Numbered from the stretch's first letter, positions 1 to 64,000 are shown. The stretch: 64,000 nucleotides of DNA from an uncultured Alphaproteobacteria bacterium (GCA_963751165.1 CAVVTP010000011.1:164995-228994); one strand, 5' to 3'. The notes: generated from the letters alone by a model not told the origin. A program made the numbers and translations.

Positions 1-1173
1 TCCGGAATGGCGACAAACTGCACGCCCGTGTAGGGAACGGGATCCTTGGTCGGGTGGGTCGGGTCGGCCGACATGATCGCTTTCAAGACGATCGGCGCGA
101 AGGGCGCCGCCTTCAGGTAGTCGGGATTGTCGTAGGTGGACTTGCGCGTGCCGGGAGGGACGGAGACCCATCCCTCGGTGTCGCCGACCAGCTTGACGTA
201 GTCCTTGGACGTCGCCCAGTGTACGAAATCCTTGGCGACCGCCTCCTTCTTGGTCGAGGTCGGAATAGCAAGCGCCCAGGACCATGCCCATTGGGCGCCG
301 TTCGGCGTCACCGCGATCGGCGCCTTGGCGAAGCCGACCTCGGCGGCCACCTTGCTCACTTTCGGATTTGAGATCCGGCCCGCCGCCGACGTCGCGTCGA
401 TCCAGATCGCACACTTGCCGTCGGCAAATAGAGCCTGGTTCTCGTTGAAGCCGTTCGCCGAGGCGCCGGGCGGTCCGTCGGCCTTCATCAGATCGACGTA
501 GAAGGTAATCGCCTTCTCCCAAGGCTCAGAGGTCAGCTGCGGCTTCCACTCCATGTCGAACCACCGGCCTCCGAACGTGTTCACCAGCGTGCCGAGAAAC
601 GCCATGTTCTCGCCCCAGCCCGGCTTGCCGCGCAGGCAGATGCCGTAAACACCGTTGGCCTTGTCGGTCAGTTTGTCGGCGAACTGCTTGATCTGATCGT
701 ATGTCGGCTGCTCGGGCATGGTGAGGCCCGCCTTCTCGAACAGGTCCTTGCGATACATGGTGAAGGAACTCTCTGCGTAGAACGGCAAGGCGTAGAGCTT
801 GCCGTTCACGGAAAGCCCCGCCTTCACCGGCGCGAGCAGATCTTCGTAGTCATAGTTCTTCAAGTCATCGAGCTGGTCGAGCCAGCCGCGCTTACCCCAA
901 AGCGGCGTTTCGTATGCGCCGATCGTAATGATGTCGTAAGAGCCGCCCTTCGTCGCGATGTCGAGGGTCACTTTCTGGCGGAGGACATTCTCCTCTGAGA
1001 ATCACCCAGTTGATCTTGTTGCCGGTCTGCTGCTCCCATTTGGACGACAGCTTCTGCATGATGATCATGTCGTCGTTGTTGACGGTCGCAATCGTCAACG
1101 TTTCCGCGTGAACCGCGGTCATACCGCCGAAAGCAAGCGCTAGTCCGGCCACCCAAATCTTGAGCCCTGTCAT
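1..1173 (-). CDS. ABC transporter extracellular solute-binding protein, family 1 sugar/polyol type (SmoE/UgpB-like). N-terminus and signal peptide at 1173, gene runs off the window start. Single frameshift near 985-1000.
   Basis: ORF 892-1173 begins MTGLKIWVAGLALAFGGMTAVHAETLTIATVNNDDMIIMQKL (signal peptide plus SBP N-terminus). A second frame downstream reads NVLRQKVTLDIATKGGSYDIITIGAYETPLW, a typical family-1 SBP continuation. Confidence 0.6.
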
Positions 1174-1628
1174 GGCATCTCCCTCCTGTCGCCACGGCCA
1201 ACCAAACTGGCCATGACCTTTTGCTACAATGTCTCAGTAAAGTATATCAGCGGTGCTCGCCAGTTTCGCCGAGGCGTCCGCCCTGGCGCGGCCAATCGCA
1301 TGCGACTCTCGCAATCTCGCCGGTTTCCCATCCAAATTCCGGCTCTTTTGTCATGCTAACGTTGAGCGTTTGATCGACAGGCGGACCGCCGAAGCACGAC
1401 GCGGTCGGACCGCTCGAGGCCGCAGACGACGACGTTCCGATTTGAGGTCGCCAAAGCGGCCGCCCTCGGCCGACCGAACCACCTCCAACCTACGCCGTAC
1501 GTCGGACGCGGCGTTCCGGCGCGTTTCAAGACTGCCGTTCGCGCAAGAACGGCTGCTTCCGCGCCGTGCGTGAGCAGGGCGGCGATCGCATTCCGCCGTG
1601 TGGACGGAAACAGCGAGGAGAATCAAGG

Positions 1629-2906
1629 ATGGCATACCGCGATCGTCTGATCCTTTCGACCTCAGCAGCCCTGGCTTTGTCCGCGCTCGCCGCGGCGCCG
1701 GCCTGGGCCGCGGAAACCAAGGGTTTCGTCACCGACCCGCTCGGCGTCGTCGCTGTCCCGAAAGGCGCGCCGCTCGACTTCGGCGGCTATTGGGTGATGT
1801 CGGGACCCGATTCTGCGCTCGGCATCGACGAGAAGCGCGGCGTCGAGCTCGCGATCAAGGACGAGGGCGGGACGCTGCTCGGTCATCCGATCGAGCTGCG
1901 CGTCGAGGACACCCAGTGCAACGCCGAGGGCGGCCAGACTGCCGCGACCAAGCTCGCCGCCGACCCGAACACTGTGGTCGTGCTCGGACCCGCGTGCTCG
2001 AGCGCGGCGACGCCCGGCGCCCCGATCCTGTGGAAGGCCGGCATCGTCGACATCGCCACCGCGACCACGGCGCCGGCCCTGACCGCCCCGGACCGCAAGC
2101 CGGGATATGACGGCTTCTTCCGCACCGTCTACAGCGATACCGATCAGGGCGCCGCGGACGCAAAATACGTCTACGACGTCATGAAGGCGCGCAAAATCGT
2201 CACCGTTCACGACGGCAGCCCCTACGCCCAGCAGCTGGCGAGTGTGATGGCCGACAATTTCAAGAAGCTCGGCGGTCAGGTGCTGTCGGTCGAGGCGGTG
2301 TCGCCGACGGAAGTGGACATGCACCCGGTGCTGACCCGCATCGCAACGGAGAAGCCCGACATGATCTACGCGCCGATCTTCGTCGCCGCCGGGGCGCAGC
2401 TCCTGCGGCAGGAAAAGGACACCCCCGGCCTCGAGAAGGTTCCGTTGATCGGCAGCTCCGGCCAGATGGCGCCGGATATGATTTCCGCCGCCGGCCAGGC
2501 GGTCGTCGGCTACAGGATCACCTACCCCGACGTGTCGCCCGAGGCCATGGGGGCGGCCTATCCGAAGTTGGTCAAGGAATATACCCAGACATACGGCGAG
2601 CCGCCGATCTCCGGCTATCACGCCAACGCCTATGACGCCGCCGTGCTCGCCATGAAAGCGATCGAGAAAGCGGCGAAGACCGATGCGAGCGGCACGACCT
2701 ATATCGGCCGAATGGCGCTGCGCGACGCCGTCCGGACGATCAAGTTCGACGGCGTCAGCGGGCCGATCGCCTGCAATCAATATGGCGAGTGCGCCAAGTT
2801 CAAGCCGGCGGTCTACAAATTCACCAACGCCGATCCGTCGACCTTCAAGATCGGGGTGAACCCGAAGAAGGTATGGCCGGAGACCCACTCGGCCAGTTCA
2901 AAATAG
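1629..2906 (+). CDS. Branched-chain/general amino acid ABC transporter substrate-binding protein (LivK family)
   Basis: GGAGGAGA Shine-Dalgarno before the ATG at 1629. Signal peptide MAYRDRLILSTSAALALSALAAAPAWAAE. The protein has the Leu/Ile/Val-binding-protein family fold with LGP..SS motifs. First gene of a livKHMGF-like run. Confidence 0.8.
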   Translation: MAYRDRLILSTSAALALSALAAAPAWAAETKGFVTDPLGVVAVPKGAPLDFGGYWVMSGPDSALGIDEKRGVELAIKDEGGTLLGHPIELRVEDTQCNAEGGQTAATKLAADPNTVVVLGPACSSAATPGAPILWKAGIVDIATATTAPALTAPDRKPGYDGFFRTVYSDTDQGAADAKYVYDVMKARKIVTVHDGSPYAQQLASVMADNFKKLGGQVLSVEAVSPTEVDMHPVLTRIATEKPDMIYAPIFVAAGAQLLRQEKDTPGLEKVPLIGSSGQMAPDMISAAGQAVVGYRITYPDVSPEAMGAAYPKLVKEYTQTYGEPPISGYHANAYDAAVLAMKAIEKAAKTDASGTTYIGRMALRDAVRTIKFDGVSGPIACNQYGECAKFKPAVYKFTNADPSTFKIGVNPKKVWPETHSASSK

Positions 2907-2980
2907 AAGCGACGACGCGCGCCCCGTGTCCAAGCTCGGGCGCGGGGCGCGGCGCGGCGCCTGAAGGCGAGGGCGAGGCC

Positions 2981-4075
2981 ATGTCCGAAACGTCGGCGAC
3001 TCGAAGCCTGCTTGCGAGCCTCCACAGGCGAGCGCGCTTCGGGTTTATCGACATCGTGTTGTGGTGCTTGCGCGCCGCAGTCGTCGCAGTGGTCGCCGCC
3101 GGCACGGCGGGCACTCTGATCAAAGGCCGCTACGGGCTCGCCGACTGGCTCGAATTCCTCGCCTACGGCGTCACCATGGGCAGCGTCTACGCCCTGATCG
3201 CGCTCGGCTACACCATGGTCTACGGCGTCTTGCGCCTGATCAATTTCGCCCACGGCGACATCATGATGACGGGGGCGTTTGCCGGGTATTTCCTGGCCGC
3301 CTATTTCGACGAGACCGGCTTCCTGCGGCACGAGCCGGCGCTCGCCATGCTCGCGGTTCTCGCGCTCGGCGTCGCAACTTCCACGATTATCGCCTTGCTG
3401 ACGGAGCGGCTCGCCTACCGTCCGTTCCGCCGGGTCCGCGGTCTCGCGCCGCTGATCTGCGCCATCGGCGTCTCGTTCTTCCTCGAGCAATCGTTCCGCG
3501 GCGCGTTCGGTTCGGGGGTCCACGCCTATCCGGACACGGTTTGGCAGAACGAGACGGTTCCCGTTTTCGGCTTTGGGATCCCAGTCGTTCAATTGATCGT
3601 GGTCGTCATCGCGTTCGTCTCGATGACGATTCTCTACCTGATCGTTCAGCGCACGCGTATGGGCATGGCGATGCGGGCGGTTTCGGAAGATGCCGACGCC
3701 GCCGCGATGATGGGGATCGACGTCGACAAGGTCATCGTCTTCACTTTCGTCCTCGGCGGCGCGATGGCCGGGGTCGCCGGCGTCTGCTACGCCTTCGTGT
3801 TCAAACAGGTCTATTTCTTCATGGGGTTCACGCCGGGCGTCAAGGCGTTCGGCGCGGCGGTGCTCGGCGGCATCGGCAGCGTCCCGGGCGCGATGCTGGC
3901 GGGACTGTTCCTCGGAATCATCGAATCCGTGGGACCTGCTCTCTTCCTCGATGGAATCGGCATTCCAGCGCCCTACCAGCTGCGTGACCTCATCGCCTTC
4001 ACGCTCCTCATCATGGTGCTGATCTTCCGCCCGTATGGGATCATGGGCGAGCGCATGGCGAAGAAGCGCGCATGA
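2981..4075 (+). CDS. livH: Branched-chain amino acid ABC transporter permease (LivH family)
   Basis: Polytopic membrane protein. The GYTMVYGVLRLINFAHGD motif is typical of LivH. Start MSETSATRS at 2981. The stop overlaps the next gene. Confidence 0.8.
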   Translation: MSETSATRSLLASLHRRARFGFIDIVLWCLRAAVVAVVAAGTAGTLIKGRYGLADWLEFLAYGVTMGSVYALIALGYTMVYGVLRLINFAHGDIMMTGAFAGYFLAAYFDETGFLRHEPALAMLAVLALGVATSTIIALLTERLAYRPFRRVRGLAPLICAIGVSFFLEQSFRGAFGSGVHAYPDTVWQNETVPVFGFGIPVVQLIVVVIAFVSMTILYLIVQRTRMGMAMRAVSEDADAAAMMGIDVDKVIVFTFVLGGAMAGVAGVCYAFVFKQVYFFMGFTPGVKAFGAAVLGGIGSVPGAMLAGLFLGIIESVGPALFLDGIGIPAPYQLRDLIAFTLLIMVLIFRPYGIMGERMAKKRA

Positions 4076-5807
4076 GCGCGACCACGCTGGTCGCCGGGAC
4101 CCGCGCGACTCCCGATCCGTGGGGGGCGCCCTCAAGCTCGGGCTCGTCTTCGGCGCGGTCGCCGTCTACATCGCTGTCGTCGGTATCCTGCCGATGTTCG
4201 ATCGGCGCTGGATCGTCGTCGACGTCGTCTCGCTCGGGCACGCCGCCCTGATCACAATCGCGCTCGGCGCGGGAGCGGCGACAGTCTTGCGTTCGCGACC
4301 CTTGAAGCCGTTGCCCGCCGCCGCCGCCGGCCTCGTGGCGGGAGGCGTCGCCGGATCGCTGCTCGCCCTCTTGGCGCTGGCGATGCAGGTTCTGCCGCTC
4401 CGGCGGATTTTCATCGCGCTGTCGCCGATTCTTCTGCGGGCGCTGACTTTCGGCCTCGGCGCGCCGGCCGGCGGATTGATCCTCATCGCCGGAGCCGCGG
4501 TTCTGGGCGCAGTCGGCGCGGCGATGGCGCTCGCTTCCCCGCGAGCCCGCGATCCTCTGCTGATCGGCCTCGCCTTCGTCGTCGTGTTCGGCGTTTTCCA
4601 GGAACTCATCCAGATCATTCTGCGAGGAAACGCCGCCGCCGACGCCGTGCGCCAGGCGCTCTATTCCTGGGAGGGGCTCGAGCCGCGCGGCGCGGCGGCG
4701 ATCTTCCTCCTTGCGAGCGCAGGCGCGGCGCTCTGGATGGGCGCTCCGCGCGCGAGGTTGGGCGAGGCGTTCGCAGGGTTGTCGCCGAGGCGACGAAGTC
4801 AGGCAAGAGCGATGCGCGCCGCGGGCCTTGTCGCGCTCCTCATCCTGATGCCGGTCCTCGCAGGCTCCTACATCGGCCAGGTCATGCTGCTGGTCGGGCT
4901 CTATATGCTGATGGGAATGGGACTCAATCTCGAGGTCGGCCTGGCCGGGCTGCTCGACCTCGGCTTCGTCGCCTTCTTCGCGGTCGGCGCCTATGCGACG
5001 GCGCTCCTGACCGCCAACTCTTCGCACGCGCTCGCGTCCTATACCCCGCTGCCGAGCCTTTCCTTCTGGGCCGCGGCGCCGATCGCGGTCCTTGCTTCGG
5101 TCGCGGTCGGGGTGCTGTTCGGCATTCCGGTGCTCGGCGTCCGCGGCGACTATCTTGCGGTCGCCACCATGGGGCTCGGCGAGATCGTGCGCGTCATCGT
5201 CCAGTCGGACATGGCGGCGCCCCTGCTCGGCGGCGCCCAGGGGATCCTGCAGATCCCGAAGCCAAGAATTGGCCACTTCGAGCTCGCCGACCCGGTCGAC
5301 CTATTCTATCTGACACTGATCGCCTCGGGGTTCGCCGCCTATTGCGCCTGGCGCCTGGAAAACTCTCGCCTTGGGCGGGCCTGGACGGCGGTGCGCGACG
5401 ACGAGGACGTCGCGCAGGCGCTTGGCGTCAATCTGGTGGAGGTCAAGCTCCTGGCCTACGGCCTCGGCGCGGCTTTTGCCGGTCTCGCCGGCTCGATCTT
5501 CGCGGTGATGCTGACATCGGTCTATCCGAGCAGCTTCCAGCTCCTCGTATCGATCAACGTGCTGGCGCTGATCATCGTTGGCGGTCTCGGCTCTCTGCCC
5601 GGGGTCGTCGTGGGCGCGGTCGCGCTGGTCGGCCTGCCGGAGCTTTTGCGCGAGTTCGGCGAGTACCGCTACCTGTTCTACGGCGTCGCGCTGATCGTAA
5701 TGATGCGGTTCAAGCCGGAGGGCCTGTGGCCATCACCCGTGCGCCGCCGCGAATTGCGGGCCGCAACCGCTGCGCCGGCGAGCGGGCGGGCGGGAGCCGT
5801 AAGATGA
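4035..5807 (+). CDS. livM: Branched-chain amino acid ABC transporter permease (LivM family) with N-terminal membrane extension
   Basis: 590-aa polytopic membrane ORF. The C-terminal half carries the LivM signature (GLNLEVGLAGLLDLGFVAFFAVGAY...GVRGDYLAVATMGLGEI). Exact start is uncertain (M at 4035 or an internal alternative). Confidence 0.75.
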   Translation: MGSWASAWRRSAHERDHAGRRDPRDSRSVGGALKLGLVFGAVAVYIAVVGILPMFDRRWIVVDVVSLGHAALITIALGAGAATVLRSRPLKPLPAAAAGLVAGGVAGSLLALLALAMQVLPLRRIFIALSPILLRALTFGLGAPAGGLILIAGAAVLGAVGAAMALASPRARDPLLIGLAFVVVFGVFQELIQIILRGNAAADAVRQALYSWEGLEPRGAAAIFLLASAGAALWMGAPRARLGEAFAGLSPRRRSQARAMRAAGLVALLILMPVLAGSYIGQVMLLVGLYMLMGMGLNLEVGLAGLLDLGFVAFFAVGAYATALLTANSSHALASYTPLPSLSFWAAAPIAVLASVAVGVLFGIPVLGVRGDYLAVATMGLGEIVRVIVQSDMAAPLLGGAQGILQIPKPRIGHFELADPVDLFYLTLIASGFAAYCAWRLENSRLGRAWTAVRDDEDVAQALGVNLVEVKLLAYGLGAAFAGLAGSIFAVMLTSVYPSSFQLLVSINVLALIIVGGLGSLPGVVVGAVALVGLPELLREFGEYRYLFYGVALIVMMRFKPEGLWPSPVRRRELRAATAAPASGRAGAVR

Positions 5808-6662
5808 ATGGCGCGGCTAGCGAGCCGATCCTCAGAACGGAACGCCTGACGATCCGCTTTGGCGGTCTCGCCGCGGTCAACGACCTCAACCTTCACGTGC
5901 GCCAAGGGGACATCCACGCCGTCATTGGTCCAAACGGGGCCGGCAAGACGACAGTGTTCAATTGCGTGACGCAGAAATCTGCGCGTGACCGGCGGCAAGA
6001 TCTGGTTTCGCGGCGAGCGTCTGGACGGCCTGACGCCGAACCGTGTCGCCGAGGCCGGCGTCAGCCGCACCTATCAGAACATCCGGCTCTTCAGAAACAT
6101 CACCGCCATCGAGAACCTGCTGGTCGGGATGCATCTCCATCTCAAGTCGCACTGGTGGGGCGCGCTTGTTCATTCGCGGTCGACTCAGCTCGACGAAAGG
6201 CGCGCGCACGAGGAGGCCCTCGAGCTTCTGGCGTTCGTTGGGCTCAAGGGTCGCGGCGACCTCCTTGCGCGCAATCTCGCCTACGGCGAACAGCGCCGCC
6301 TCGAAATCGGCAGAGCGCTCGCGACCCGTCCGAAGCTCCTGTTGCTGGACGAGCCGACCGCGGGGATGAACCCGAGCGAAACCTCGGAGATGATCGAGTT
6401 CGTTCGTCGCACCCGCGACCTGTTTGGCGTCACGATCCTGCTCATTGAGCATCAGATGCGCGTCGTCATGGCGATATCGAACGTCGTCACCGTTCTGGAC
6501 TACGGCGTGAAGATCGCCGAGGGGCCGCCGTCTCAAATCCAGCAGGATCCCAAGGTCATCGAGGCCTATCTCGGCCGGCCGAGGGCGTCACTGACGTCCG
6601 CACGGAGGCATGCGGCCGAGCGGATGAGCGAATCGCCGGCCGAACCGGACGGCGGCGCGTAG
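5804..6662 (+). CDS. livG: ABC transporter ATP-binding protein LivG, split by a frameshift at about 5970-5985
   Basis: ATG at 5804 overlaps the livM stop (ATGA). The Walker A motif GPNGAGKTTVFNCVT is in frame 2. The remainder (GGKIWFRGERLDGL...LSGGQ-like...LLDEPTAGMNP...IEHQMRVV) is in frame 0 from 5985. One indel is needed to join them. Confidence 0.75.
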
Positions 6663-6672
6663 CGAGGCCTCC

Positions 6673-7380
6673 ATGGCTCTTCTCGAAATCGATGACTTGC
6701 GGGTGTCTTACGACAATATCGAGGCGCTGAAGGGCGTCTCGCTCAAGGTCGAGGCGAAAGAGATCGTCACGCTGATCGGCGCCAACGGGGCCGGCAAGAC
6801 GACGACCTTGCGGGCGATCAGCGGCCTCATCCCGCCGCGCTCGGGCGACATAAGGTTCGACGGCGAAAGCCTCACGGGCGTCGCCCCGCACGCGATCGCC
6901 GCGCGCGGCGTCTTGCAGGTGCCCGAAGGGCGGCGCATTTTCGCCCGCCTGACGGTCGCCGAGAATCTGGCGATGGGCGCGTTTCCCCGGCGCGACGTCG
7001 GCGCCATCGCCGCCGACCGGGAGCGCATGCTCGAATTGTTCCCGCGGCTCAGAGAGCGCCTGAGGCAGGTCGCCGGGACGCTATCGGGCGGCGAGCAGCA
7101 GATGCTGGCGACCGCGCGCGCCCTGATGGGACGCCCGCGCGTCCTGATGATGGATGAGCCAAGCATGGGTCTTTCGCCGCTCATGATCGACAGCGTGTTC
7201 GAGACGATCCGGACCATCAACGAACAAGGCGTGGCGATTCTGCTTATCGAACAGAACGCCCTCATGGCTCTCGACGCGGCCGACCGGGCCTACGTGATGG
7301 AGAGCGGCCGCATCGTCCTGTCTGGTTCCGGGAAGGCCTTGCTTGGCGACGAGAAGGTGCAGCATGCTTATCTCGGCTGA
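6673..7380 (+). CDS. livF: ABC transporter ATP-binding protein LivF
   Basis: Walker A GANGAGKTT, signature LSGGEQQML, Walker B VLMMDEPSMGL. 235 aa, the typical LivF size. Confidence 0.85.
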   Translation: MALLEIDDLRVSYDNIEALKGVSLKVEAKEIVTLIGANGAGKTTTLRAISGLIPPRSGDIRFDGESLTGVAPHAIAARGVLQVPEGRRIFARLTVAENLAMGAFPRRDVGAIAADRERMLELFPRLRERLRQVAGTLSGGEQQMLATARALMGRPRVLMMDEPSMGLSPLMIDSVFETIRTINEQGVAILLIEQNALMALDAADRAYVMESGRIVLSGSGKALLGDEKVQHAYLG

Positions 7381-7395
7381 GCGAACGGAGGCGAC

Positions 7396-8640
7396 ATGCG
7401 GATCGTAGTGCTCGGCGGCGGCGTGGTCGGCGTCACGACCGCCTATCAGTTGCAGCGCGACGGCCACGAGGTCGTGATTCTCGAACGCCGCAGCCAAGTC
7501 GCGGCAGGAGCGAGTTTCGGCAATGCAGGCATGATCGCGCCGGGTCACTCCTTCGTATGGTCCTCGCCGCGCGCCCCGATGATCCTGGCGAAATCCGTTC
7601 TGTTTCGGAACCAGGCCCTGCGTTTCAAGTTCTCCGCCGATCCGCGGCTCTATGCATGGACACTTGGGTTCCTGAAGGAATGCACAGCCGCAAAGGCGCG
7701 GCGCAACACGCTGCTCAAGCATCGGCTCGCCGCCTACTCGCAGTCGGTGCTGCAAAGCGTCGTCGCCGAGGAGTCGATTGCCTACGACGGCAACAGGCGC
7801 GGCATTCTCTACCTGCACCGCAGCCGGCGCGCGCTCGAAGACGGCGTCGAGCACATGAAGCTGCTTGAATCGGACGGGCAGGCGATCAAGGTCCTGGACC
7901 GAGACCAGGTCGTCGCGCTCGATCCTGCGCTCACTCACGCTGCCGACCGGATCGCCGGCGCGATCCTCTGCCCGACGGACGAGACGGGCGACTGCGCGAA
8001 GTTCACCCGCGCGCTCGCCGCGAGGATCGTCGAGCGGGGCGGCCAGATCGTGACCGGCGCGAGCGTCGCCGGACTTGCCGCCGACGGCGACAGGATCACC
8101 GGCGCGGAAACCGACCGCGGCCGGTTCGCCGGGGACGCTTACGTTCTGGCTCTCGGCGCCGAAAGCCCACTCTTGGCGCGGAAACTCGGCGTCCGGCTGC
8201 CGATCTATCCGATCAAAGGCTATTCGCTGACGATTCCCATCGGCGCGTCGCGGTCGCCGCCGACGGTCGCCTGCGTCGATGAGCACCATCTCGTCGCCAT
8301 TTCGCGATTCGGCGACCGCCTACGGGTCACGGCGACCGCCGAATTCGCCGGCTACGACGAGAGCTGCAAGCCGGCCGACTTCGTCTTCATGAAGGACGTC
8401 GTGCGCGAACTCTATCCAGACGGCGCCGAGTACGACCAGGCCGAAATGTGGGCGGGCTTGAGGCCCATGACCCCGACCAACCTGCCTTTCCTCGGCTCCG
8501 CGCGGCTCGGCAACCTGTTTCTCAACTGCGGTCACGGCCACATCGGCTGGACCATGTCGCACGGATCGGCGCGAATCGTCGCCGACCTGGTCGCCGGCCG
8601 GCCGACCGCCATCCCCATGGACGGCCTCACGCCCCAATGA
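7396..8640 (+). CDS. dadA: D-amino acid dehydrogenase small subunit
   Basis: N-terminal FAD fold MRIVVLGGGVVGVTTAYQL. Collinear over its full length with the DadA family (414 aa). Confidence 0.8.
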   Translation: MRIVVLGGGVVGVTTAYQLQRDGHEVVILERRSQVAAGASFGNAGMIAPGHSFVWSSPRAPMILAKSVLFRNQALRFKFSADPRLYAWTLGFLKECTAAKARRNTLLKHRLAAYSQSVLQSVVAEESIAYDGNRRGILYLHRSRRALEDGVEHMKLLESDGQAIKVLDRDQVVALDPALTHAADRIAGAILCPTDETGDCAKFTRALAARIVERGGQIVTGASVAGLAADGDRITGAETDRGRFAGDAYVLALGAESPLLARKLGVRLPIYPIKGYSLTIPIGASRSPPTVACVDEHHLVAISRFGDRLRVTATAEFAGYDESCKPADFVFMKDVVRELYPDGAEYDQAEMWAGLRPMTPTNLPFLGSARLGNLFLNCGHGHIGWTMSHGSARIVADLVAGRPTAIPMDGLTPQ

Positions 8641-8655
8641 CGGAAGGAGCGCTTT

Positions 8656-9450
8656 ATGTCTCTCGACCTCGCCTCGCTCTCCGAGCCGCTCGATCTCGGA
8701 ATCATGCCGTCGGAACTCGATGCGGGCGTCGCCTGGCGTGCGGCGGTCGGGCTCGTGGTGCTCGCCACCGACCAGACGATGGAGCACGAGTTCCGCGCGC
8801 TCTTGCATCTGCCGGGCGTCGCCGTGTTCGAGTCGCGCGTCTTCAACGACAACGACATCCGGCCCGAAACCCTGCGCGCCATCGGGCCAAGGATCGCGCC
8901 GAGCGTCGCTCTCATCTTGCCAAGCGTCAATCTCGACGTCGTCGCGTTCGGCTGCACTTCAGCGACAATGACTCTCGGCGAGGACGCGGTGTTCGCGGAA
9001 ATTCGCAAGGCGCGGCCCGCTGTCGCATGCACGACACCGGTCACCGCAGCGCTCGCGGCATTTCGCGCGCTTGGCGCAAAGTCGGTCGGGCTTTTGACGC
9101 CCTACGCGCCCGAGATCAACGCCTCGCTTGTCGCCTATTTCCGTGCGCGGGGCGTCGGCGTGTCCGCCGTCGCGACCTTCGACCGCCGCGATGACCGCGA
9201 CGCGGCGCGTGTCTCACCGGACTCGATCGAACATGCGACGCGGCGCCTCGCCTCGGCGCCGGGAGTCGAAGCGGTCTTCGTTTCCTGCACGAGCCTGCGC
9301 GTCGCCGAGGCGGCGGCGACGCTCGAACGTCTCACTGGCGCGCCGGTGACCTCGAGCAATCACGCGATGGCCTGGCATTGCCTGCGCCTCTCCGGGGTCG
9401 GCGATGCGCTGCCGAACGCCGGAAGGCTATTCGAATTGCCGCAAGCTTAA
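8656..9450 (+). CDS. Asp/Glu/hydantoin racemase-superfamily protein (maleate isomerase/arylmalonate decarboxylase-like)
   Basis: 264 aa with two conserved Cys-containing segments (VAFGCTSAT; VFVSCTSLRV) characteristic of the Asp/Glu racemase fold. Immediately downstream of dadA. Confidence 0.55.
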   Translation: MSLDLASLSEPLDLGIMPSELDAGVAWRAAVGLVVLATDQTMEHEFRALLHLPGVAVFESRVFNDNDIRPETLRAIGPRIAPSVALILPSVNLDVVAFGCTSATMTLGEDAVFAEIRKARPAVACTTPVTAALAAFRALGAKSVGLLTPYAPEINASLVAYFRARGVGVSAVATFDRRDDRDAARVSPDSIEHATRRLASAPGVEAVFVSCTSLRVAEAAATLERLTGAPVTSSNHAMAWHCLRLSGVGDALPNAGRLFELPQA

Positions 9451-9487
9451 CGCGCCGCGGAAACGCGGTTCGCCCGCAGGCTCCTCG

Positions 9488-10385
9488 TCAGACGCGCGAC
9501 CGCAGCGAAGGCCCTGTCAACGCAACGCCCGCGAGGACGAGCGCGAGGCCGGCCCAGGCGGCGACGGCGACCGGCTCTCGCAGCGCCGCCGCGCCCGCCA
9601 TGACGCCGATCAAGGGAACGACGTAGTTATTGAGGCTGGCGAAGGTCGGCCCTTCGCTCGCGATCAGGCGGAAGTAGATATAATAGGCGAGCGCGGTGTT
9701 GAGGACGCCGAGCGCAACCATCGCGGCGATCGGAGCGTACGGCGCGGCGAGGGTCGCGTCGACCGACGGCCGGTCGCCGAGAGCGAGATCAATTCCCGCC
9801 AACACGACAGTCGATATCGTCATCGACGCGGCGACGGCTTTGGCGGCTCCGATTTCGCGCGTCGGGGCCGCCTGAGAAGAGGGCGCTCATTGCGTAACAG
9901 AAGGCGGCTGCGAGCGCGATCGCCCGCCCCTCGACGGGATTTGGGGCGGCAGCGGTCTGCCCGACCGGAGATAAAAGCGCGAGGCTGACGCCGGCAAATC
10001 CGAGTGCGAGCCCGAGCGCGCCCCTGAGGCTCCACCGGTCGCCCGACCCGACGAACCGTCCAACGAGAAAAACAAAGATCGGTGAGGCGCCCATCATCAG
10101 CGCCATGTCAGCGCTGCTCGCCAGTTTCGCGGCCTTGCCGAGCAGCAGGAAGGGGACGACCTGGCCGGCCAGCGAGAGGACGACGAGCTTGCTCCAAAGT
10201 CCCAGCCGCCGGCCAGGCCAGATGGGTCCCGCGAGCGCGGCCCCGACGAGAAGCGCACCGGCGGCCACGCCGACCCGCGCGAGCGCGAAACCGAAAGGAT
10301 CGAAGACGCGAGCGGCGATCTTGATCAGGAAAAACGAGGAGCCCCAGAGAAACGACAGAAACGCCAGGCTCGCATAGGCCGCCAT
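9488..10385 (-). CDS. EamA/DMT-family transporter, split by a frameshift at about 9825-9880
   Basis: Two consecutive minus-strand ORFs (9789-10586 and 9488-9823), both polytopic with EamA-like repeats. Probable start is MAAYASLAFLSFLWGSSFFLIK at about 10385. Confidence 0.6.
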
Positions 10386-51408: not shown

Positions 51409-51414
51409 GCGTAC

Positions 51415-53129: not shown

Positions 53130-53329
53130 AAGACGGGAGCGGGATGATTTTAGGCGGATCGCCCGACTGGATTTGCTTCTCCGCCGCGCCTCCCGCGGCT
53201 AAAGTGCTTGCAAATTCAAAGCGCTGGTCTGAATCCAGCGCAGCGGGCGGAGCAGCGGGAGAATTCGCCGCAGCAGCGGATGCTGACGGCACCGCTGATT
53301 TCAATCTGCAAGGGCAGGCGCGGCGACTC

Positions 53330-54181: not shown

Positions 54182-54991
54182 CTACGCTTTCGAGCCGGGG
54201 GCCAGCGCAACGGCGGCCTCCGCCGTGAGCAGGAGAAATGTGAAAGTCTCCTGCAGGTACAATCGGACAGCCGCATCGGTGTGGCTCAAATAGCCGATGG
54301 ATATGTCCTGGCCGATGTGCAAGCCGAAGTCGCCGCCACGCGTCGTGAGCACGAATGCGCCTGTAATCGCCGGGGCCCAGATGATCTCGCCGTCCACGAG
54401 GCGCTTGATATGCTCCAGCACCGGATATCCATGGTCCCTCGTTTCGCTGAGTCCGGTATAGGCGTCGGCGCTCAGCAAGACCGAGTAGGGACCGTTGACG
54501 CCGACAAGACGCAATTGGCTAACCGCTTGCGCGATGGCGTCGGGGTAGTCCCTGACGTCGGCAGGGAGGGTCATTGCGGCATTGCTGGTTCCCTGGCGGA
54601 TCCCTTCGATGCCGGCGGCGGAATAGCCTTCGAAGATGGCGCGGTCCTCGGCAAAGGCGAGCCGGCGCGCGGCTTCCTTCGCGGGCTGCCAATCCGAGTC
54701 GTTCGCGCCACGGGCCACGTCGTCGATCTGCTGACGGTCGAGATCGAATGGCGCGCGCAGTTCGACGAGGGCTTTGACCTCGCGCTGGTGCGCCAGGATA
54801 TTGTCGCCCGGGGCCTCGACATTGCGCAGATGGCCGGTCCCGACCGCCGACAACGCAACGCCGCCGGGTCCCTGCACGTCCACGACTCGGCGGCCCGCGA
54901 GATACCGCTTGAGGGTGCGCGTCGTCTCTTGCTCGATTTGAGACCATGCCTCGTCGGAAATAGGGGCGAGCTCGCGGTGAAGATTATTCAT
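54182..54991 (-). CDS. Family 1 encapsulin nanocompartment shell protein
   Basis: MNNLHRELAPISDEAWSQIEQETTRTLKRYLAGRRVVDV...VELRAPFDLDRQQIDDVARG...IGYLSHTD is collinear with linocin-M18-type encapsulins. Start overlaps the Dyp stop. Confidence 0.85.
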   Translation of the reverse strand: MNNLHRELAPISDEAWSQIEQETTRTLKRYLAGRRVVDVQGPGGVALSAVGTGHLRNVEAPGDNILAHQREVKALVELRAPFDLDRQQIDDVARGANDSDWQPAKEAARRLAFAEDRAIFEGYSAAGIEGIRQGTSNAAMTLPADVRDYPDAIAQAVSQLRLVGVNGPYSVLLSADAYTGLSETRDHGYPVLEHIKRLVDGEIIWAPAITGAFVLTTRGGDFGLHIGQDISIGYLSHTDAAVRLYLQETFTFLLLTAEAAVALAPGSKA

Positions 54992-56077
54992 GCGATGGGT
55001 CTCCTTTGAGAGATCCGATGCCGAGCGAACCGTCGCGCGCCGACGTATCCGGTTGCGAGGGTGCAACGACGACGTCGGCAGGCGACGCTGCTGTCGCGGG
55101 CTCGTCGTCCGCAACGCTCTCGAGAAATGTGGCGGATGGGGCGAAGAAGAGACTTCCCGTGACGGCGCGACTGAAATCCAGCAGCCGATCGTAGTTGCCA
55201 GTAGGCAGGCCGACGAACATGTTCGACAGCATCTGCTCGATCGTTCGGGGCGAACGCGCGTAGCCGATGAAATAGGTGCCGAATTCGCGCTGCGCGACAT
55301 TGCCGAACGCCATATTGTCGCGAAGAATTTCTTCTCTTCGCCGCCCTCCACGATCGTGGTCAACGCATTGTGGGCGAACGTCGGCTTGACCGCGTCGTCG
55401 AGTTCGATGTCGGAAAGTTTGGTGCGCCCGATGATGCGCTCCTGCGCCTCGTTCGGCAGCGCGTCCCAGGCCATTAGATCGTGAAGGTATTTTTGCACCA
55501 GCACATAACTGCCGCCGGCGAACGCCACATCCTCGATGTCCACCAACGCGGCGTCGATCGCCGCCTGACCCATTGGGTTCTCCGTTCCGTCGACAAAGCC
55601 GATGAGATCACGATCATCGAAATATTTGAACCCATGCACTTCGTCGACGGGCGAGACCGCGTCCCCGAGGCGCGTCATGATCTGCTTCGCCAGTTCAAAA
55701 CACAGGTCCATGCGCTTCGAACGGATATGAAAAAGGAGATCACCCGGCGTGGCGACCGCATGCCGAGAGCCAGCCCGGATTTCGCGGAACGGATGCAATT
55801 CGGCCGGCCGCGGCGAACCGAATAGCCTGTCCCAGGCCTCGGACCCGAAACCCATCACGCAAGACAGGCTTCCCTCGATATCGCGGAAGCCCACGGCGCG
55901 CAGAAGTCCCGGCAGGTCGCCGCAGAATGACCGGACCATGTCGCGGTTGGCTGGGCCGGGGTTCATGGTCGCGACCAGAAAGATCGCGGCGCGGGTCAGA
56001 GGCTGAACCACCGCCTGGGGGATGGCCGACAGCCCATCCTTGGCTCCGGACGAGTTCAACGGCTCGAACTCCATCAA
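54984..56077 (-). CDS. Dyp-type peroxidase encapsulin cargo with a C-terminal targeting peptide. Single-base frameshift near 55315.
   Basis: N-terminal Dyp core in the 631-aa ORF frame (...GFVDGTENP...). C-terminal part in ORF 54984-55313 (MAFGNVAQREFGTYFIGYARSP...DGSLGIGSLKGDPSHE). SLGIGSLK is the canonical encapsulin cargo-loading peptide. Confidence 0.8.
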
Positions 56078-56195
56078 TGGCGTCGCCAGGCGCGCGAAAA
56101 TGCGTCCCCTGAAATCCCCTCACCGAACAGGATGCGATAGATTGTCGGAGCACGCAATATTCGGGTCTGATTGACTCTTGGTGCAAGTGGTCTTT

Positions 56196-57068
56196 CTACA
56201 ACGGCATCATCCGAGCGCGGAGCAACTCGACTCCGGCGCGGCCATACATGGCTCGCTTGAGGGTCTTCAATTTGTTGATCTGTCCTTCGGTCTGTCCGTT
56301 GCTCCAGGGTTCCGACACAGCGTTCCGAACCGCCTCCAGGTCTTGGCGTATCGTCCTCGCGAAACGCTGCAACGCGTAGATGCCAGACGCGCGAGCGTCG
56401 ATCAGCCAAGCGTCCAGGCCCTCCGGCGTTCCGCCACGAAGCAGGCCTCGAAAGCGCATCGCCAGGCGCCGCATCGCGGTGAACTCGGCGGACGCCGCTT
56501 TCAGCGCGGCGACGTTGGCGGCCTGCCGGGCGGTCATCTGGCCGCGGGGTTTGACGCACAGCGCCGCGGCGGTGAGCGGCGAGATCAGGCGACCAGTCAT
56601 CGGATCCAGCGTTCGCACGCGGACCGGGGCCCGCTCCCCCTGCTCGTCGCCATCGAGTAAAGGCTTGCCGCCGCGCCAGGGAGCAAGGAAACGCGCCAGA
56701 TGACTGAAGGACCCGGTATAGCCGCGATGGCGTATCTCGGCGAATAAGTGCCGAACCTTAGTGATGCCTTCGGCCCACCGCCGCTCCAGCAGAACGCCAA
56801 AATACGCCGGGGCGGAAGGGGTTGACGCCATTGTGTTGCGGTCCGGCAAATCGATCCGACGGACCCACCGTTCGACCCGCCGGCGACCAAGACCGAGTTT
56901 TTGGGCGATTTCCCGGATGGAACTGCCACCTTCAAAAAGCGTCCTGATCTCATCGAATAGCTGTTGCCGGACAGCTTGGCAGTATTTGGCATCGCAAACG
57001 CACGTGATTGAGCCGATGCTGCGCTGTTGCGCTGCGCTTAAATGGGGTCTGATTGACTTCTGGTGCAA
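56196..57068 (-). pseudogene. ISL3-family transposase derivative (HTH region plus C-terminal SNGQTEGQINKLKTLKR motif, DDE core missing), copy 1
   Basis: ...IREIAQKLGLGRRRVERWVR...PWSNGQTEGQINKLKTLKRAMYGRAGVELLRARMMPL. About 290 aa versus about 450 for intact ISL3 transposases. Confidence 0.6.
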
Positions 57069-57077
57069 GTCGTCTTC

Positions 57078-57893
57078 CTACAACGGCATCATCCGAGCGC
57101 GGAGCAACTCGACACCGGCGCGGCCATACATTGCTCGCTTGAGGGTTTTCAATTTGTTGATCTGTCCTTCGGTCTGCCCGTTGCTCCACGGTTCCATCAC
57201 AGCGTTCCGAACAGCCTCCAGGTCCTGCCGTATCGTCCTCGCAAAACGCTGCATCGCGTAGATCCCAGACGCGCGCCCGTCGATCAGCCACGCATCCAGC
57301 CTCTCCCGCGTTCCACCGCGAAGCAGACCTTGAAACCGCATCGCCAGATGCCGCATCGCGGTGAACTCCGTCGACGCCGCCTTCAGCGCATCGACGTTGG
57401 CGACCTGCCGGGCGGTCATCTGGCCACGGGGTTTGACGCAAAGCGCCGCCGCAGTCAGCGGCGAGATCGCGCGGCCGGTCATCGGATCCAGTGTTCGCAC
57501 ACGGACCGGCGCTGGCTCCTCCTGCTCGACACGCACCTGCTCGTCACCATCGAATGAAGGCTCGCAGTTGCGCCAGGGAGCGAGGAAACGTGCCAGATGG
57601 CTGTAGGACCCGGTATAGCCGCGATGGCGAATCTCAGCGAACAAGTGCCGGACTTTGGTAATGCCTTCAGCCCAACGCCGCGCCAGCAGAGCGCCGAAAT
57701 ACGCTGGGGTGCACGGATTTGGCGCCATGGTGTTGCGATCCGGCAAATCGATGCGACGGACCCAACGTTCGACCCGTCGGCGACCAAGACCGAGCTTGCG
57801 AGCGATCTCCCTGACGGAACTGCCACCTTCAAAAAGCGCTCTGATTTCATCGAATAGCTGTTGCCGAATCGCCTGGCGTCCGTGGCGCATCAA
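57078..57893 (-). pseudogene. ISL3-family transposase derivative, tandem copy 2
   Basis: Near-identical to copy 1 (same internal deletion). Confidence 0.6.
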
Positions 57894-57924
57894 GCGCTTT
57901 AGAGCGGTTTCCGATCAATCCGTA

Positions 57925-58623
57925 TCATATCGGCAGGCCTTGAAGTAATTGACGCATTCGGCGGGTTTGAAAAATTTCGGCGCAGGCGTCGAGGGCGTTC
58001 ATCAGGCCTGAGACGGTGCGCTCGGCAATCTTGCGCAGGAAGGCTTTCAGCTTGGAATAGGCCTTTTCGATGGGGTTCATGTCGGGGCTGTAGGGCGGCA
58101 AATATCGTAACTCGGCTCCAGCGGCCTCGATGAGTTTCTCGACCCTTGGCCCCTTGTGGCTCGACAGATTGTCCATGACGACGACGTCGCCCTTCGAGAG
58201 CGTGGGGACGAGACATTTTTCCGCCCAGTCCTCGAACGTGGCGGCATTCATCGGCTTGTCGAAAGCCTTCTGCGCCACGAGGCCCGAAAGGCGCAGCCCG
58301 GCCACGAGGGTGATCGTCTTATAATGGCCATGCGCAACGCCGACGCGCAGCCGCCGCCCGCGCCGGCAGCGTCCGCTTTTGCGCGCCAGATTGGTGGAAG
58401 CCCCGGTTTCATCGATGAAAACGAGCTTCCTCGGATCGAGGTCGAGTTGCGCCCCAAACCACGCCTGACGCTGCTTCAAGACGTCCGGGCGCTGCTGCTC
58501 CTCGGCTGCCGGCTGTCCACCGTGACCGTCCAAGCCTGTTCTCCCCGTTCGACCCTCACGACGTTCAGGCTTGGCGCGGGTGACCATATAACTGATGTTT
58601 TCATGACGCCCGTGCTGCCGCAT
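57925..58623 (-). pseudogene. IS630/Tc1-mariner-family transposase, DDE domain only (N-terminal HTH missing or frameshifted)
   Basis: ...LVFIDETGASTNLARKSGR...YLPPYSPDMNPIEKAYSKLKAFLRK is the DDE(D) catalytic region of IS630 transposases. Confidence 0.65.
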
Positions 58624-58894
58624 AACAGCGCAAGATGCCAGTCCGCGGGCGCTTCATCGGGCATGCCGTGTCCGGCGCATGTACCAAGAGTCAATCAGAC
58701 CCCAATATTCGGAGGTGTCCGCCCTGAAGCGTGAACGGTCCGCAGCGCCGCCACGACGCGCCGAGCGCGCCGACCCTTGTGGCGAACATCCCGAATGCCC
58801 GGAATGCCCGCGCTTCTGGATGGGCGCCGTGGCGATCGAGTTCAAAGCAGTCTTGCGGAAGACGTTACGAACCCTCGTTCGGGAGGGGCTTGCA

Positions 58895-59248
58895 TCATGG
58901 CTCATCTTTCAACTCCGCCTCGATCGCCAACACGGCAGCCTTCAATGGCGGAAGATTCACTTGAACGACATTCCATATCAGCCTGTCGGAGACCCGATGA
59001 TATTCGTGCCGCAGCACGTTGCCAATTCCCGCGATCTGCGACCATGGGATCTGTGGCTGGCTTGCCAGGACTTCAGGCGGAATGCGGCGGGCCGCCTCCG
59101 AGATGATCTCGATGCCCCGCTGAACCCCATGGCGGAGAAGCCAATTGCCGCCAAAGTCGTCGAACGTCTTGCCTTTCGTGGCGGCTTCGATGCCTTCGAT
59201 CGCTTCGAGAATGGCCAGCAACGCCGGACGGACAAGTCGCGCCATCAA
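58895..59248 (-). CDS. hepT: HepT-family (DUF86, HEPN) toxin
   Basis: ...LRHGVQRGIEIISEAARRIP...IAGIGNVLRHEYHRV with the HEPN R-x4-6-H motif. Overlaps the upstream mntA by 4 nt. Confidence 0.8.
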   Translation of the reverse strand: MMARLVRPALLAILEAIEGIEAATKGKTFDDFGGNWLLRHGVQRGIEIISEAARRIPPEVLASQPQIPWSQIAGIGNVLRHEYHRVSDRLIWNVVQVNLPPLKAAVLAIEAELKDEP

Positions 59249-59577
59249 AAGACGCGCTCTGCCGAGGCCTCGATCCCACTGCGCAGCAGCGGGTCGAGGC
59301 TGTCGCGGGTCGTCAGGTCAACCGGAACGCCAAGGCGGCGCTCCAGGAGCTGTTTGACGCCGACCAGGTCGACAAGGGAAAATCGGCCGCCCTGATCGTA
59401 GTCGACGAAGAGATCAAGGTCGCTCGCCGCGAGCAATTCCTCGCGAGCCATCGATCCGAAAAGATAAAGGGCCGTGACGCCACGGGCCTTCACTTCGTCG
59501 GCTTGTCCCCTCAGCGCTTCGACCGCATCCTGTTTTCTCATGACCATATCGTACACCGGCTCTCGGGACCCAGCCAT
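59245..59577 (-). CDS. mntA: MntA-family nucleotidyltransferase antitoxin
   Basis: LYLFGSMAREELLAASDLDLFVDYD is the minimal nucleotidyltransferase GS...D.D motif. Confidence 0.8.
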   Translation of the reverse strand: MAGSREPVYDMVMRKQDAVEALRGQADEVKARGVTALYLFGSMAREELLAASDLDLFVDYDQGGRFSLVDLVGVKQLLERRLGVPVDLTTRDSLDPLLRSGIEASAERVF

Positions 59578-59650
59578 CCCCAGCGGCTAGCCGTGCCGCT
59601 CCCTGCCCCGCTGCCCTACCGACCGGCGCCGATAATCAGAGTTCACGTTG

Positions 59651-59768
59651 CGCGATTGGGAACAGGGCCGTCGGGCGCCGGACGCCGGACGCCGGGACGA
59701 AGAGCCACCTGCAGGTCATCGCTCGGACGCCGGAAGCCGTCGCCAAGGCGCTGCACGACGCGGTTTGA
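59651..59768 (+). pseudogene. Second relic of an XRE-family antitoxin 3' end (FTLRDWEQGRRAPD...LQVIARTPEAVAKALHDAV*), with an internal CCGGACG tandem duplication and a frameshift
   Basis: About 80% identical over about 100 bp to 51469-51560. Ends in a proper stop codon. Confidence 0.45.
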
Positions 59769-59830
59769 GCCTTGCATAGCACGCAAACCCTAATCCGGCG
59801 CTTCGCGCTGCTCCGTGCGCGGGAGAAGGG

Positions 59831-62893
<3,063 letters not shown>

Positions 62894-62961
62894 CGGACCT
62901 CGACGACAATTTTCGGGCTTCGAGCGCGAATCGCGCTTGCGCGAGCCGGGTCTCGATGCTA

Positions 62962-62976
62962 GAACAAATAAAGAAC
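62962..62976. promoter_or_regulatory. LexA (SOS) box GAACaaataaaGAAC in the divergent uvrA-ssb intergenic region
   Basis: Exact GAAC-N7-GAAC, the reverse complement of the alphaproteobacterial GTTC-N7-GTTC consensus. Confidence 0.75.
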
Positions 62977-63168
62977 AAGGGGAAGGCGCCCCGTGCGCCC
63001 TGCCTCCGGTTCTCCCTAATGTAGGCGAGGCGGCGCTCCTTCCCAAGCGTCGCGCGCGCCGAAGTGTGGACAAGTCTGGTTGTCGAGCGCGCTGACGGCC
63101 TCGCCTGCGCCGCTTTCGGCTATGCATGATGAAACGAGCAGCGCCGCAGGGCGCGTCAGGAGCAGACC

Positions 63169-63666
63169 ATGGCGGGCAGCGTCAACAAGGTGATCCTCGT
63201 CGGCAACCTGGGCAAGGACCCGGAAGTGCGCCGGCTGAATTCCGGCGATCCGGTGGTGAGTTTCTCCCTCGCCACCTCGGACTCCTGGCGCGACAAGACC
63301 ACAGGCGAGCGAAAGGAACGCACCGAGTGGCACAACATCGTGATCTTCAACGAGAACCTCGGTAAAATCGCCGAGCAGTACTGCAAGAAGGGCACGAAGG
63401 TTTACGTCGAAGGCCAGCTGCAGACGCGCAAATGGCAGGACCAGAGCGGCAACGACCGCTATACCACCGAGATCGTGCTGACCCGCTTCCGCGGCGAACT
63501 GCAACTGCTCAACTCCCGCGGCGGCGGCGAGGCCCGCGACAGTTTTCCCGATGAGAACGGCTCCCGCAGCTTCGCCCGCCCGTCTATTGGCGGCGGCGAG
63601 CGCAAGCCGGCGCTCTCCGGCGGCGTCGGAGGGCCCGGGCCGATCGACGACGATATTCCATTCTGA
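63169..63666 (+). CDS. ssb: Single-stranded DNA-binding protein
   Basis: [21 protein letters not shown]...OB fold...Gly-rich tail ending in the acidic DDDIPF. Confidence 0.9.
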
Positions 63667-63849
63667 GTGTCGTGCGCAGATAGGGCGTCGGCTCGAACGG
63701 CCGAGCGCGCGCCCGCCCCCTTCTGGGATGACGATGGTCTGGGATCGCGCCAATCCTAGCTTGGGCGATCCTCGTATCCTTAAACCAGACACTTAACCTC
63801 TTGCTTCACTATCCGCGGCGTGATACTGAAGTGTACGCGTAACTATTCA

Positions 63850-64000
63850 GCCGCCCTCATCGCGCCTTTCAGGTCCTCGCCGATCCGACCCGGCGGGCGA
63901 TGGTCGTGCGGCTCGCGCGTGGGCCGGGCCGTCCGCGAACTCGCCCGGCCGCTCATGATGTCGCTGCCCGCGGTGATGCAGCATCTCGCGGTGCTCGAGG
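63850..64000 (+). CDS. ArsR/SmtB-family HTH regulator, N-terminal part. Runs off the window end and contains an indel in a GGGCCGGGCC run.
   Basis: ...FQVLADPTRRAMVVRLARGP then, out of frame, VRELARPLMMSLPAVMQHLAVLE. Confidence 0.4.

Follow-up and report, generated by a model that had tools for sequence, protein, structure and literature searches.

Single-base frameshifts in a 64-kb stretch of a Roseiarcus-like alphaproteobacterial genome probably reflect nanopore consensus error rather than gene decay

When many genes of one genome are interrupted by single inserted or missing bases, are the genes inactive, or has the sequence been misread? This question is raised by a stretch of 64,000 nucleotides (nt) from an uncultured Alphaproteobacteria bacterium (GCA_963751165.1, CAVVTP010000011.1:164995-228994), which at its full length is called the window here. 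Every functional call across the window hinges on the answer, and broken reading frames occur in core genes such as livG, dnaE2 and uvrA. An earlier note, made from the sequence alone, had favoured assembly error over pseudogenisation. That preference is supported by 4 independent lines of evidence: the frameshifts are private to single assemblies, they are associated with the motif GANTC, the damage consists of insertions and deletions (indels), and the uvrA gene appears to be a chimera. The frameshifts are very probably consensus artefacts of nanopore sequencing, and the genes concerned should be read as intact.

The window, from a contig of a soil bacterium, has a GC content of 62-69% over its 64 kb, and the nearest named relatives of its proteins are proteins of Roseiarcus metagenome-assembled genomes (MAGs; Alphaproteobacteria, Hyphomicrobiales). 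Contigs of other ENA assemblies, all with Flye-style contig_N names, served as relatives. L001 (ERZ25039518) covers window positions 16331-30289, L003 and L004 (ERZ25039540, contig_60477) cover 23561-34642, 40063-49911 and 50626-64000, and L005 (ERZ25039540, contig_58215) covers 1-15648; L002 (ERZ25039538) is a more distant relative with 85-91% identity. The window and its near relatives are 99.1-99.7% identical across 55.8 kb aligned, and differ by 307 substitutions and 44 indel events. Lesions were called by aligning intact proteins of the relatives to the window, protein to DNA with frameshifts allowed, together with base-level DNA alignments. A frame plot of the GC content at third codon positions (GC3) and stop-to-stop lists of open reading frames (ORFs) reveal frame changes and are too coarse for placing lesions. 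The correct version at each site was inferred from the integrity of the reading frame, the assemblies of the relatives being themselves error-prone.

Broken genes among near-identical assemblies

Eleven ORFs firmly need 1-nt corrections, namely those of SBP, LivG, EamA, NrtR, DnaE2, an IS1380 transposase, VOC, GST, Dyp, UvrA and ArsR, and a further 2-3 probably do; the earlier count of at least 15 was essentially right and slightly generous. At the left end of the window, the gene of an SBP_bac_1 sugar ABC substrate-binding protein (3-1171, minus strand) carries one additional nucleotide at 993-997, an extra G 2 nt from a GAATC site, and the L005 orthologue is intact (435 amino acids (aa), 99.7% identity on both sides). 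In livG (5806-6659, plus strand), an A is added at 5975 inside a site of the methyltransferase CcrM (GAATC to GAAATC); LivG of L005 is intact (285 aa, 99.6% identity). The nrtR gene (11271-12223, plus strand) has an extra T at 11314, 15 codons in, by which GAGTC becomes GAGTTC (GACTC to GAACTC on the other strand), and the 318-aa NrtR of L005 is otherwise 100% identical. Two mutually compensating shifts, 44 codons apart, occur in a VOC/glyoxalase gene (42835-43603, minus strand): an A is gained at 43292 (GATTC to GAATTC), and a G is lost at 43423, where a run of 6 G abutting GAATC is shortened to 5. The L003 counterpart is intact (257 aa, 99.6% identity). The Dyp peroxidase gene (54987-56072, minus strand) has lost one base at 55328, the G of GATTC, and its L004 counterpart is intact (363 aa, 99.4% identity). 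The GST gene (48676-49319, plus strand) is interrupted away from any GANTC, by an additional G at 48743 in codon 24, and an intact 215-aa GST is found in L003.

For several genes the comparison is less direct. The dnaE2 gene (20140 to 16596, minus strand) has a single +1 event at 17490 (17486-17492), the sole frameshift relative to the intact 1232-aa DnaE2 of L002, and the local GAGTTC looks like a damaged GAGTC site. The gene of an EamA/DMT transporter (9491-10515, minus strand) shows an additional C at 9868 and another at 9927, both in G/C runs, relative to L005, where the gene is also split (133 and 208 aa). Phase arithmetic indicates that the window and L005 are each one base off, in different ways. 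In the IS1380-family transposase gene (38565-39971, minus strand), one G is absent at about 39030 (39025-39035; CCGGGTC to CCGGTC) and the DDE domain is split from the C-terminus: the match to Pfam DDE_Tnp_1_4 covers the profile only up to position 292 of 435, with the conserved C-terminus following in another frame. The uvrA gene (62890 to 59834, minus strand), for which at least 5 frameshifts had been reported, needs about 17 corrections between 60650 and 62840 in a frameshift-aware alignment to the intact UvrA of L004. A different lesion is seen in an RND efflux pump gene (43775-47018, minus strand), which ends 14 codons early at 43772-43774; here the fifth base of a GAATC site has changed from C to T, which turns CGA into TGA, and the 1112-codon open frame of the pump (43775-47110) is otherwise intact. 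The open frames at 17452-20268 and 43775-47110, which by length were candidates for uvrA, are dnaE2 and this pump, and were rejected as such.

The frameshifts that had been reported in livG, dnaE2, uvrA, Dyp, GST, VOC, EamA and the IS1380 transposase were therefore borne out by the alignments, mostly 0-110 nt from where the earlier note had placed them (990 for 997, 9850 for 9868 and 9927, 17600 for 17490, 39070 for about 39030, and 43300 for 43292). The livG lesion had been located exactly at 5975, and the GST lesion, expected at 48744, was found as the extra G at 48743. The Dyp lesion is real and had been placed at 55315, about 10 nt off. The NrtR frameshift was not on that list. About 35 other genes of the window are intact in frameshift-aware alignment, with 98-100% amino-acid identity to the relatives.

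LivG, NrtR, VOC, GST, Dyp and UvrA are intact in L003, L004 or L005, as the comparison with orthologous loci proposed in the earlier note has found. Every broken gene is intact in some contig of at least 99% identity, three genes excepted: EamA, the IS1380 transposase, for which there is no relative to compare, and dnaE2, which only the more distant L002 has intact. Lesions of their own occur in the relatives as well. L001 contains 9 private indels in 23561-30289, where the window equals L003, and its aconitase gene is split among them. The dnaE2 gene is broken at 17490 in the window, at the equivalent of 17638 in L001 (C4 versus C3), and nowhere in L002. L005 has its own frameshift in LivM, where GATTC has become GAATTC; the LivM discrepancy is therefore an error in the relative and not in the window. 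LivM of the window (4035-5807, plus strand) is 590 aa long, of which some 160 aa form a hydrophobic extension at the N-terminus, and its frame is coding-like (GC3 0.84); in L005 (6680-8413) a 427-aa call and a 450-nt apparent gap result from that frameshift. Independent inactivation of different genes in populations that are 0.3-0.9% apart is implausible, and assembly-specific error directly explains the private frameshifts.

The damage is also narrow in kind. Forty of the 44 indel events are 1 nt long, and the 4 multi-base events comprise two of 3 nt and two of 2 nt. Broken genes keep 98-100% protein identity to their intact orthologues on both sides of the shifts, with no codon indels. Within the aligned genes no nonsense mutation was seen beyond the GANTC-type C>T of the RND pump, and in the aligned broken genes neither larger deletions nor an excess of amino-acid change was observed. 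In genomes under real reductive decay, such as those of Mycobacterium leprae or of recent symbionts, substitutions accumulate alongside nonsense mutations and larger deletions, and lesions are common to close relatives. The window resembles such genomes in that many core genes are interrupted and insertion sequence (IS) elements are present, and it differs from them in lacking both the mixed lesion spectrum and, with the exception of one DUF3309 ORF, lesions shared by relatives. Since nonsense mutations, larger deletions and missense drift are all missing, the pattern is not that of neutral decay. Genuine pseudogenisation in an actively decaying genome, in which livG, uvrA, dnaE2, Dyp and other genes would be truly inactivated, is accordingly very improbable. 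The frameshifts are truly in the deposited sequence, and mobile-element activity in the window looks real, with IS clusters that are absent from relatives and one that truncates an F420-dependent oxidoreductase gene. Against these points stand the near-exclusive +/-1-nt spectrum and lesions that differ from one assembly to the next despite an identity of more than 99%, and to them are added the motif association and the composition of uvrA described below.

The GANTC association

The pentamer GANTC is methylated at N6 of its adenine by CcrM, a cell-cycle methyltransferase that many Alphaproteobacteria possess (PMC12710330). Nine of the 44 indel events lie inside GANTC, compared to a baseline of 1.25% of aligned columns (p=3.5e-9), and the substitutions share this bias, with 36 of 307 inside the motif against the same baseline (p=1e-23). 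Among 763 motifs (four-mers, five-mers and gapped motifs), GANTC ranks first with 45 of 351 events, a 10.3x enrichment (p=7.6e-31), and AANTC, an error product of GANTC, ranks second. The scan was run after a recurring motif had been noticed in the indel contexts; the scan itself is unbiased. GANTC is under-represented in the window, with 129 sites observed and 204 expected from base composition, and at least 14 further sites of the window have apparently been lost to errors, either of the AANTC type or indels. No ccrM gene is present within the 64-kb window.

The events within the motif take few forms. In 28 of the 36 in-motif substitutions, either the first base of the motif changes from G to A or its fifth base from C to T. 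Among the indels, GANTC to GAANTC recurs; it is seen at window positions 5975, 11314 and 43292, and L005 has it at the equivalents of window positions 1304 and 4427. Other forms are the loss of the motif G (41062 and 55328) and a change in a G run abutting the motif (43423, and in L001 at 24739). When the 10 window-specific coding frameshifts outside uvrA and arsR are considered, 4 lie inside GANTC, 2 are adjacent to it (997 and 43423) and 1 is in the apparently damaged site at 17490. A further site, 27421, exists in 3 versions, with CCCC-ATCGG in the window, CCCCGATCGG in L001 and a sequence one substitution from that of the window in L003; it may represent a second, GATC-like context of systematic error.

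For R10.4.1 (Kit 14) nanopore sequencing, Lohde et al. (2024, PMC11610573) describe errors in which A is confused with G, or C with T, and for which RA/TY is the minimal motif. This corresponds to a G before the methylated A, and therefore matches the interchange of GANTC and AANTC exactly. GANTC has been named as an error motif in Oxford Nanopore assemblies of agrobacteria (PMC12710330). There is no mutational reason for the link to GANTC or for the stereotyped forms; both match a known sequencing artefact, which counts against decay as well. The platform itself is indicated by the contig naming together with this error signature, and GANTC is presumably methylated in this organism. The window is part of a 229-kb contig of a Roseiarcus-like (Hyphomicrobiales) MAG, which on this basis would have been built solely from nanopore reads. 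The CcrM-methylated A of GANTC would distort the signal, the basecaller or polisher would miscall the neighbouring G as A (giving AANTC, or GANTT on the other strand), and a base could also be gained or lost in or beside the motif (GAANTC, or loss of the G). Such methylation errors would break livG, nrtR, VOC and Dyp, and probably dnaE2 and the substrate-binding protein gene, and would create the early stop in the RND pump. A second component, low-coverage noise of +/-1 nt in short G/C runs, would account for EamA, the IS1380 transposase, GST and a patch at arsR.

The methylation errors previously described with R10.4.1 chemistry (Lohde et al. 2024, PMC11610573; Chiou et al. 2023, cited in PMC12710330) resemble those of the window in that they occur at the target of a methyltransferase, take the form of RA/TY confusions (purine for purine, pyrimidine for pyrimidine) at the base 5' of the methylated A, and vary between assemblies of one organism. 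The window differs in that the motif is the GANTC of CcrM in an uncultured MAG, that many errors are ORF-breaking 1-nt indels and not only single-nucleotide polymorphisms, and that they are known here from assemblies alone. The agrobacterial nanopore assemblies (PMC12710330, mSystems 2025) share the motif, the bacterial class and the family of assembler and polisher with the window. Fragmentation of long-read MAGs (Sereika et al. 2022, PMC9262707; proovframe, 10.1101/2021.08.23.457338) likewise consists of ORFs split by small indels in nanopore-only data, with a severity that depends on coverage (compare L001 with L003). These works stress homopolymers; in the window, most events fall outside runs of 4 or more.

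Ordinary error in homopolymer length, from long reads or from 454/Ion Torrent sequencing, with no role for methylation, would account for the run-length changes at 43423 (G6/G5), 41005 (C5/C4), 17638 (C4/C3) and 39030 (GGG/GG). As a general explanation it is improbable, because only 5 of 38 single-base events fall in runs of at least 4 while 16 occur at a non-repeated base, and because GANTC is the top-ranked context and is shared by the substitutions. Homopolymer error is thus a minor component. Another conceivable explanation would retain the motif and discard the artefact: methylated GANTC sites could be true mutational hotspots in wild Roseiarcus, where recurrent G>A changes and +/-1 indels reversibly switch genes such as livG, Dyp, VOC and nrtR on and off between co-existing strains, so that the assemblies would differ by real polymorphism. 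This idea is given almost no credence here.

The uvrA tract and the arsR patch

The uvrA gene differs from the other broken genes. A tract of 2.6 kb (about 60240-62840) is approximately 11% divergent from L004, its flanks are about 99.5% identical to it, and the density of frameshifts is some 20-fold above that of the rest of the window. After frame correction, the window UvrA is 86.5% identical to that of L004. Among 5.8e9 proteins, none exceeds about 85-86% identity to the frame-corrected sequence; UvrA of L004 has relatives at 95%, and both parental types have close ones. Where the window UvrA departs from L004, it has the consensus residue of non-Roseiarcus UvrAs at 103 positions, and its 14 private residues are fewer than in any natural sequence examined (minimum 22-27).

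Two further alleles were compared as DNA, that of the closest distant homologue, L006 (JGI sample 3300055024, Ga0556608_0001202), and L007, a Roseiarcus-type allele. Between the uvrA genes of L004 and L006, identity is only 76%. At 660 of the 673 informative sites, where these two differ, the window agrees with one or the other, and 277 of its 306 differences from L004 equal L006. Within the tract, 275 sites of L006 type and 276 of L004 type alternate in 181 runs, each on average some 3 informative sites or about 14 nt long. The Roseiarcus-specific insertion in uvrA, a part that foreign reads cannot cover, stays L004-type and carries many single-base deletions, which suggests low coverage by the genome's own reads at that place. 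With 181 switches in 2.6 kb, the tract is therefore not the result of recombination, and a consensus formed position by position from mixed reads fits. Judged from these patterns, it appears to be a chimeric consensus of two read populations, and not a product of recombination or decay. The consensus would have been built from the genome's own allele and the approximately 76% identical allele of another alphaproteobacterium, switching between parents every 14 nt or so, and we infer that reads of this more abundant organism were recruited to the conserved uvrA gene during consensus building or polishing. Since a gene of an unrelated JGI metagenome agrees with the foreign parent at about 98% of informative sites, the L006 organism or a very close relative is probably abundant in the window's sample too. 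The neighbours of uvrA in L006 are different ones (Adenyl_transf and GST).

Three other accounts of uvrA were rejected. An old, real pseudogene would have drifted; the differences are states of natural alleles (98% of informative sites) with few private residues, which is a further point against decay of the genome. An unpolished raw read does not agree with substitutions that outnumber indels about 5:1, nor with 98% of informative sites matching real alleles. It is scarcely credible that the tract is a natural recombinant or a horizontally acquired allele, whether its frameshifts are real or erroneous. The sharp boundaries of the tract, with flanks of about 99.5% identity to L004, would suit such an allele, as would the occurrence in natural UvrAs of almost every state by which the tract departs from L004. 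These features are outweighed by 181 parent switches in 2.6 kb at a ratio of 50:50, by the lack of any sequence above about 86% identity among the 5.8e9 proteins despite close relatives of both parents, by fewer private residues than in natural sequences, and by the roughly 20-fold frameshift density.

In agrobacterial assemblies, contaminant reads gave hundreds of errors in conserved plasmid loci (PMC12710330). That case concerned isolates with 17-173x coverage that were checked with Illumina data, whereas the window is a metagenomic contig and the putative chimera involves the chromosomal gene of another taxon. The description of the damage in the earlier note as a single pattern of long-read or low-coverage error holds insofar as an artefact is concerned; homopolymers turn out to be minor, and uvrA represents an artefact of a different kind.

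A smaller disturbed patch extends over the ssb-arsR intergenic region and the start of arsR (63689-63930, plus strand), with five deletions of 1-2 nt and scattered transitions relative to L004. The arsR frameshifts are a loss of 1 nt at 63858 and of 2 nt at 63928, in a GGGCCGGGCC context, as had been described. A chimera with the L007 allele was considered and rejected, as the sequence does not match; the patch looks like plain low-quality consensus.

Counter-evidence, neighbouring loci and consequences

Several observations weigh against reading the frameshifts as nanopore artefacts. The sequencing platform is deduced from contig names and the error signature, and the relatives that serve as truth are apparently nanopore assemblies too, their correct versions being derived from reading frames and not measured. 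Only about one quarter of the indel events lie within 3 nt of GANTC, and the others bear no specific signature and are individually indistinguishable from real polymorphism. About half of the indels between the window and L003, L004 or L005 are intergenic, which is above the intergenic share, and purifying selection on real indels predicts the same. The lesions of DUF3309 are identical in 3 assemblies, and EamA is broken in 2. Finally, reads of 76% identity are at the edge of long-read mapping, so the mechanism proposed for the uvrA chimera is tentative.

The intergenic events include 1-nt indels relative to the relatives at 41005 (C5 to C4), 41062 (loss of the G of GAGTC) and 41158 (an additional T), and others at 1227, 1304, 25340, 47079, 53215 and 58841 (GAGTC to GAGTTC). 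Upstream of nrtR, also in intergenic sequence, a 3-nt insertion (TGA) lies by a run of 6-7 T at 10948-10950 relative to L005. The DUF3309 ORF, encoding a small membrane protein (about 23460-23640, minus strand), needs at least 2 frame repairs. It is the membrane protein that had been reported with a T5 run; its family is matched only once the frame is repaired, and the run is at 23606-23610 and not at 23440. After repair by hand, PF11752 is matched over positions 1-48 of 50 with 22.5 bits, and the raw frames give no match. The sequence is the same in the window and L001 and, from 23561 onward, in L003; the lesion is either a recurrent systematic error or real.

From these observations, a mixed situation can be proposed, in which most lesions are artefacts and a subset, such as those of the IS1380 transposase, EamA, DUF3309 and some intergenic indels, are real differences between strains. 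This is possible but rather unlikely. The identical DUF3309 lesion in the window, L001 and L003, the split of EamA in both the window and L005, the over-representation of intergenic indels, and the common decay of transposases, with no relative of the IS1380 gene for comparison, all favour it. However, systematic errors recur at the same site across assemblies, and sharing is thus no proof of reality; the EamA lesions differ between the two assemblies, and all candidate sites lie in short G/C or T runs.

Unlike the 1-nt indels, a 5.4-kb IS cluster at 34650-40063, absent from L003, has the look of a genuine structural disruption. Found in it are a DUF4096/IS5-like fragment, IS3-like orfA/orfB, and IS30 and IS1380 transposases, and a 145-bp piece of the original locus is stranded inside it at 38284-38428. 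An ORF with an HTH_Tnp_1 domain (35226-35669) is overlapped by another (35666-36262) that falls in a 'putative transposase' cluster with members of about 309 aa. Judged from the sequence, the overlap across 35226-36262 is probably normal IS architecture (IS3-type orfA/orfB) rather than an error. The adjoining gene of an F420-dependent oxidoreductase (40065-40614, minus strand) aligns to residues 1-184 of 213 only, and its 3' end appears to have been cut off by the IS1380 insertion. A second insertion, of 2.5 kb relative to L004, lies at 56164-58703 between the Dyp gene and a HepT/NTP_transf_2 toxin-antitoxin pair. It carries a DDE_3 transposase and two tandem ISL3-like transposase ORFs (290 and 271 aa), each of which matches an HTH and no more than the C-terminal half of DDE_Tnp_ISL3.

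GC-rich palindromic elements resembling repetitive extragenic palindromes (REP-like; CCCCTCTCCCCGC...GCGGGGAGAGGG...GGGGTGAGGGG) are found at 17600-17650, 19600-19740 and 61960-62080. They lie in-frame within dnaE2 (two copies) and uvrA and are translated as peptides of the 'GRGVGGEG' type. A copy beside dnaE2 of L002 matches window 19606-19739 in inverted orientation, and the insertion in uvrA is specific to Roseiarcus-type alleles. The dnaE2 gene belongs to a mutagenesis cassette (16596-23170, minus strand) in the order imuA-like, imuB-like, DUF559 and dnaE2. In its imuB region, about 150 bp (approximately 20975-21137) are present in the window and missing from L001, and many codon-level indels are seen relative to L002. 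At 54182-56072 (minus strand), the Dyp-type peroxidase gene is directly upstream of the shell gene of a family-1 encapsulin (Linocin_M18), a classic cargo-shell operon; L004 has it intact, and the sole break of the Dyp gene in the window is the deletion linked to GANTC. For the ORF pair at 15684-16459, to which the position 16127 of the earlier note belongs, neither ORF has a convincing family match, the best being Bestrophin-like (E=0.018), and none of the relatives spans it.

The errors in the window are of known kinds, namely methylation-induced nanopore errors, low-coverage indels and chimeric consensus, and they are of low biological and high annotation importance. They offer a diagnostic for alphaproteobacterial nanopore MAGs that requires no reads: differences and frame breaks located at GANTC, AANTC or GAANTC. 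A second sign is a conserved gene in which the sequences of two taxa alternate on a fine scale. Protein databases and phylogenies can be contaminated by chimeric conserved genes of this kind, and the product of the window uvrA looks 'consensus-like'. As for the organism, its genome should not be described as decaying, nor as lacking nucleotide excision repair, branched-chain amino-acid import, the Dyp-encapsulin cargo or the DnaE2 mutasome.

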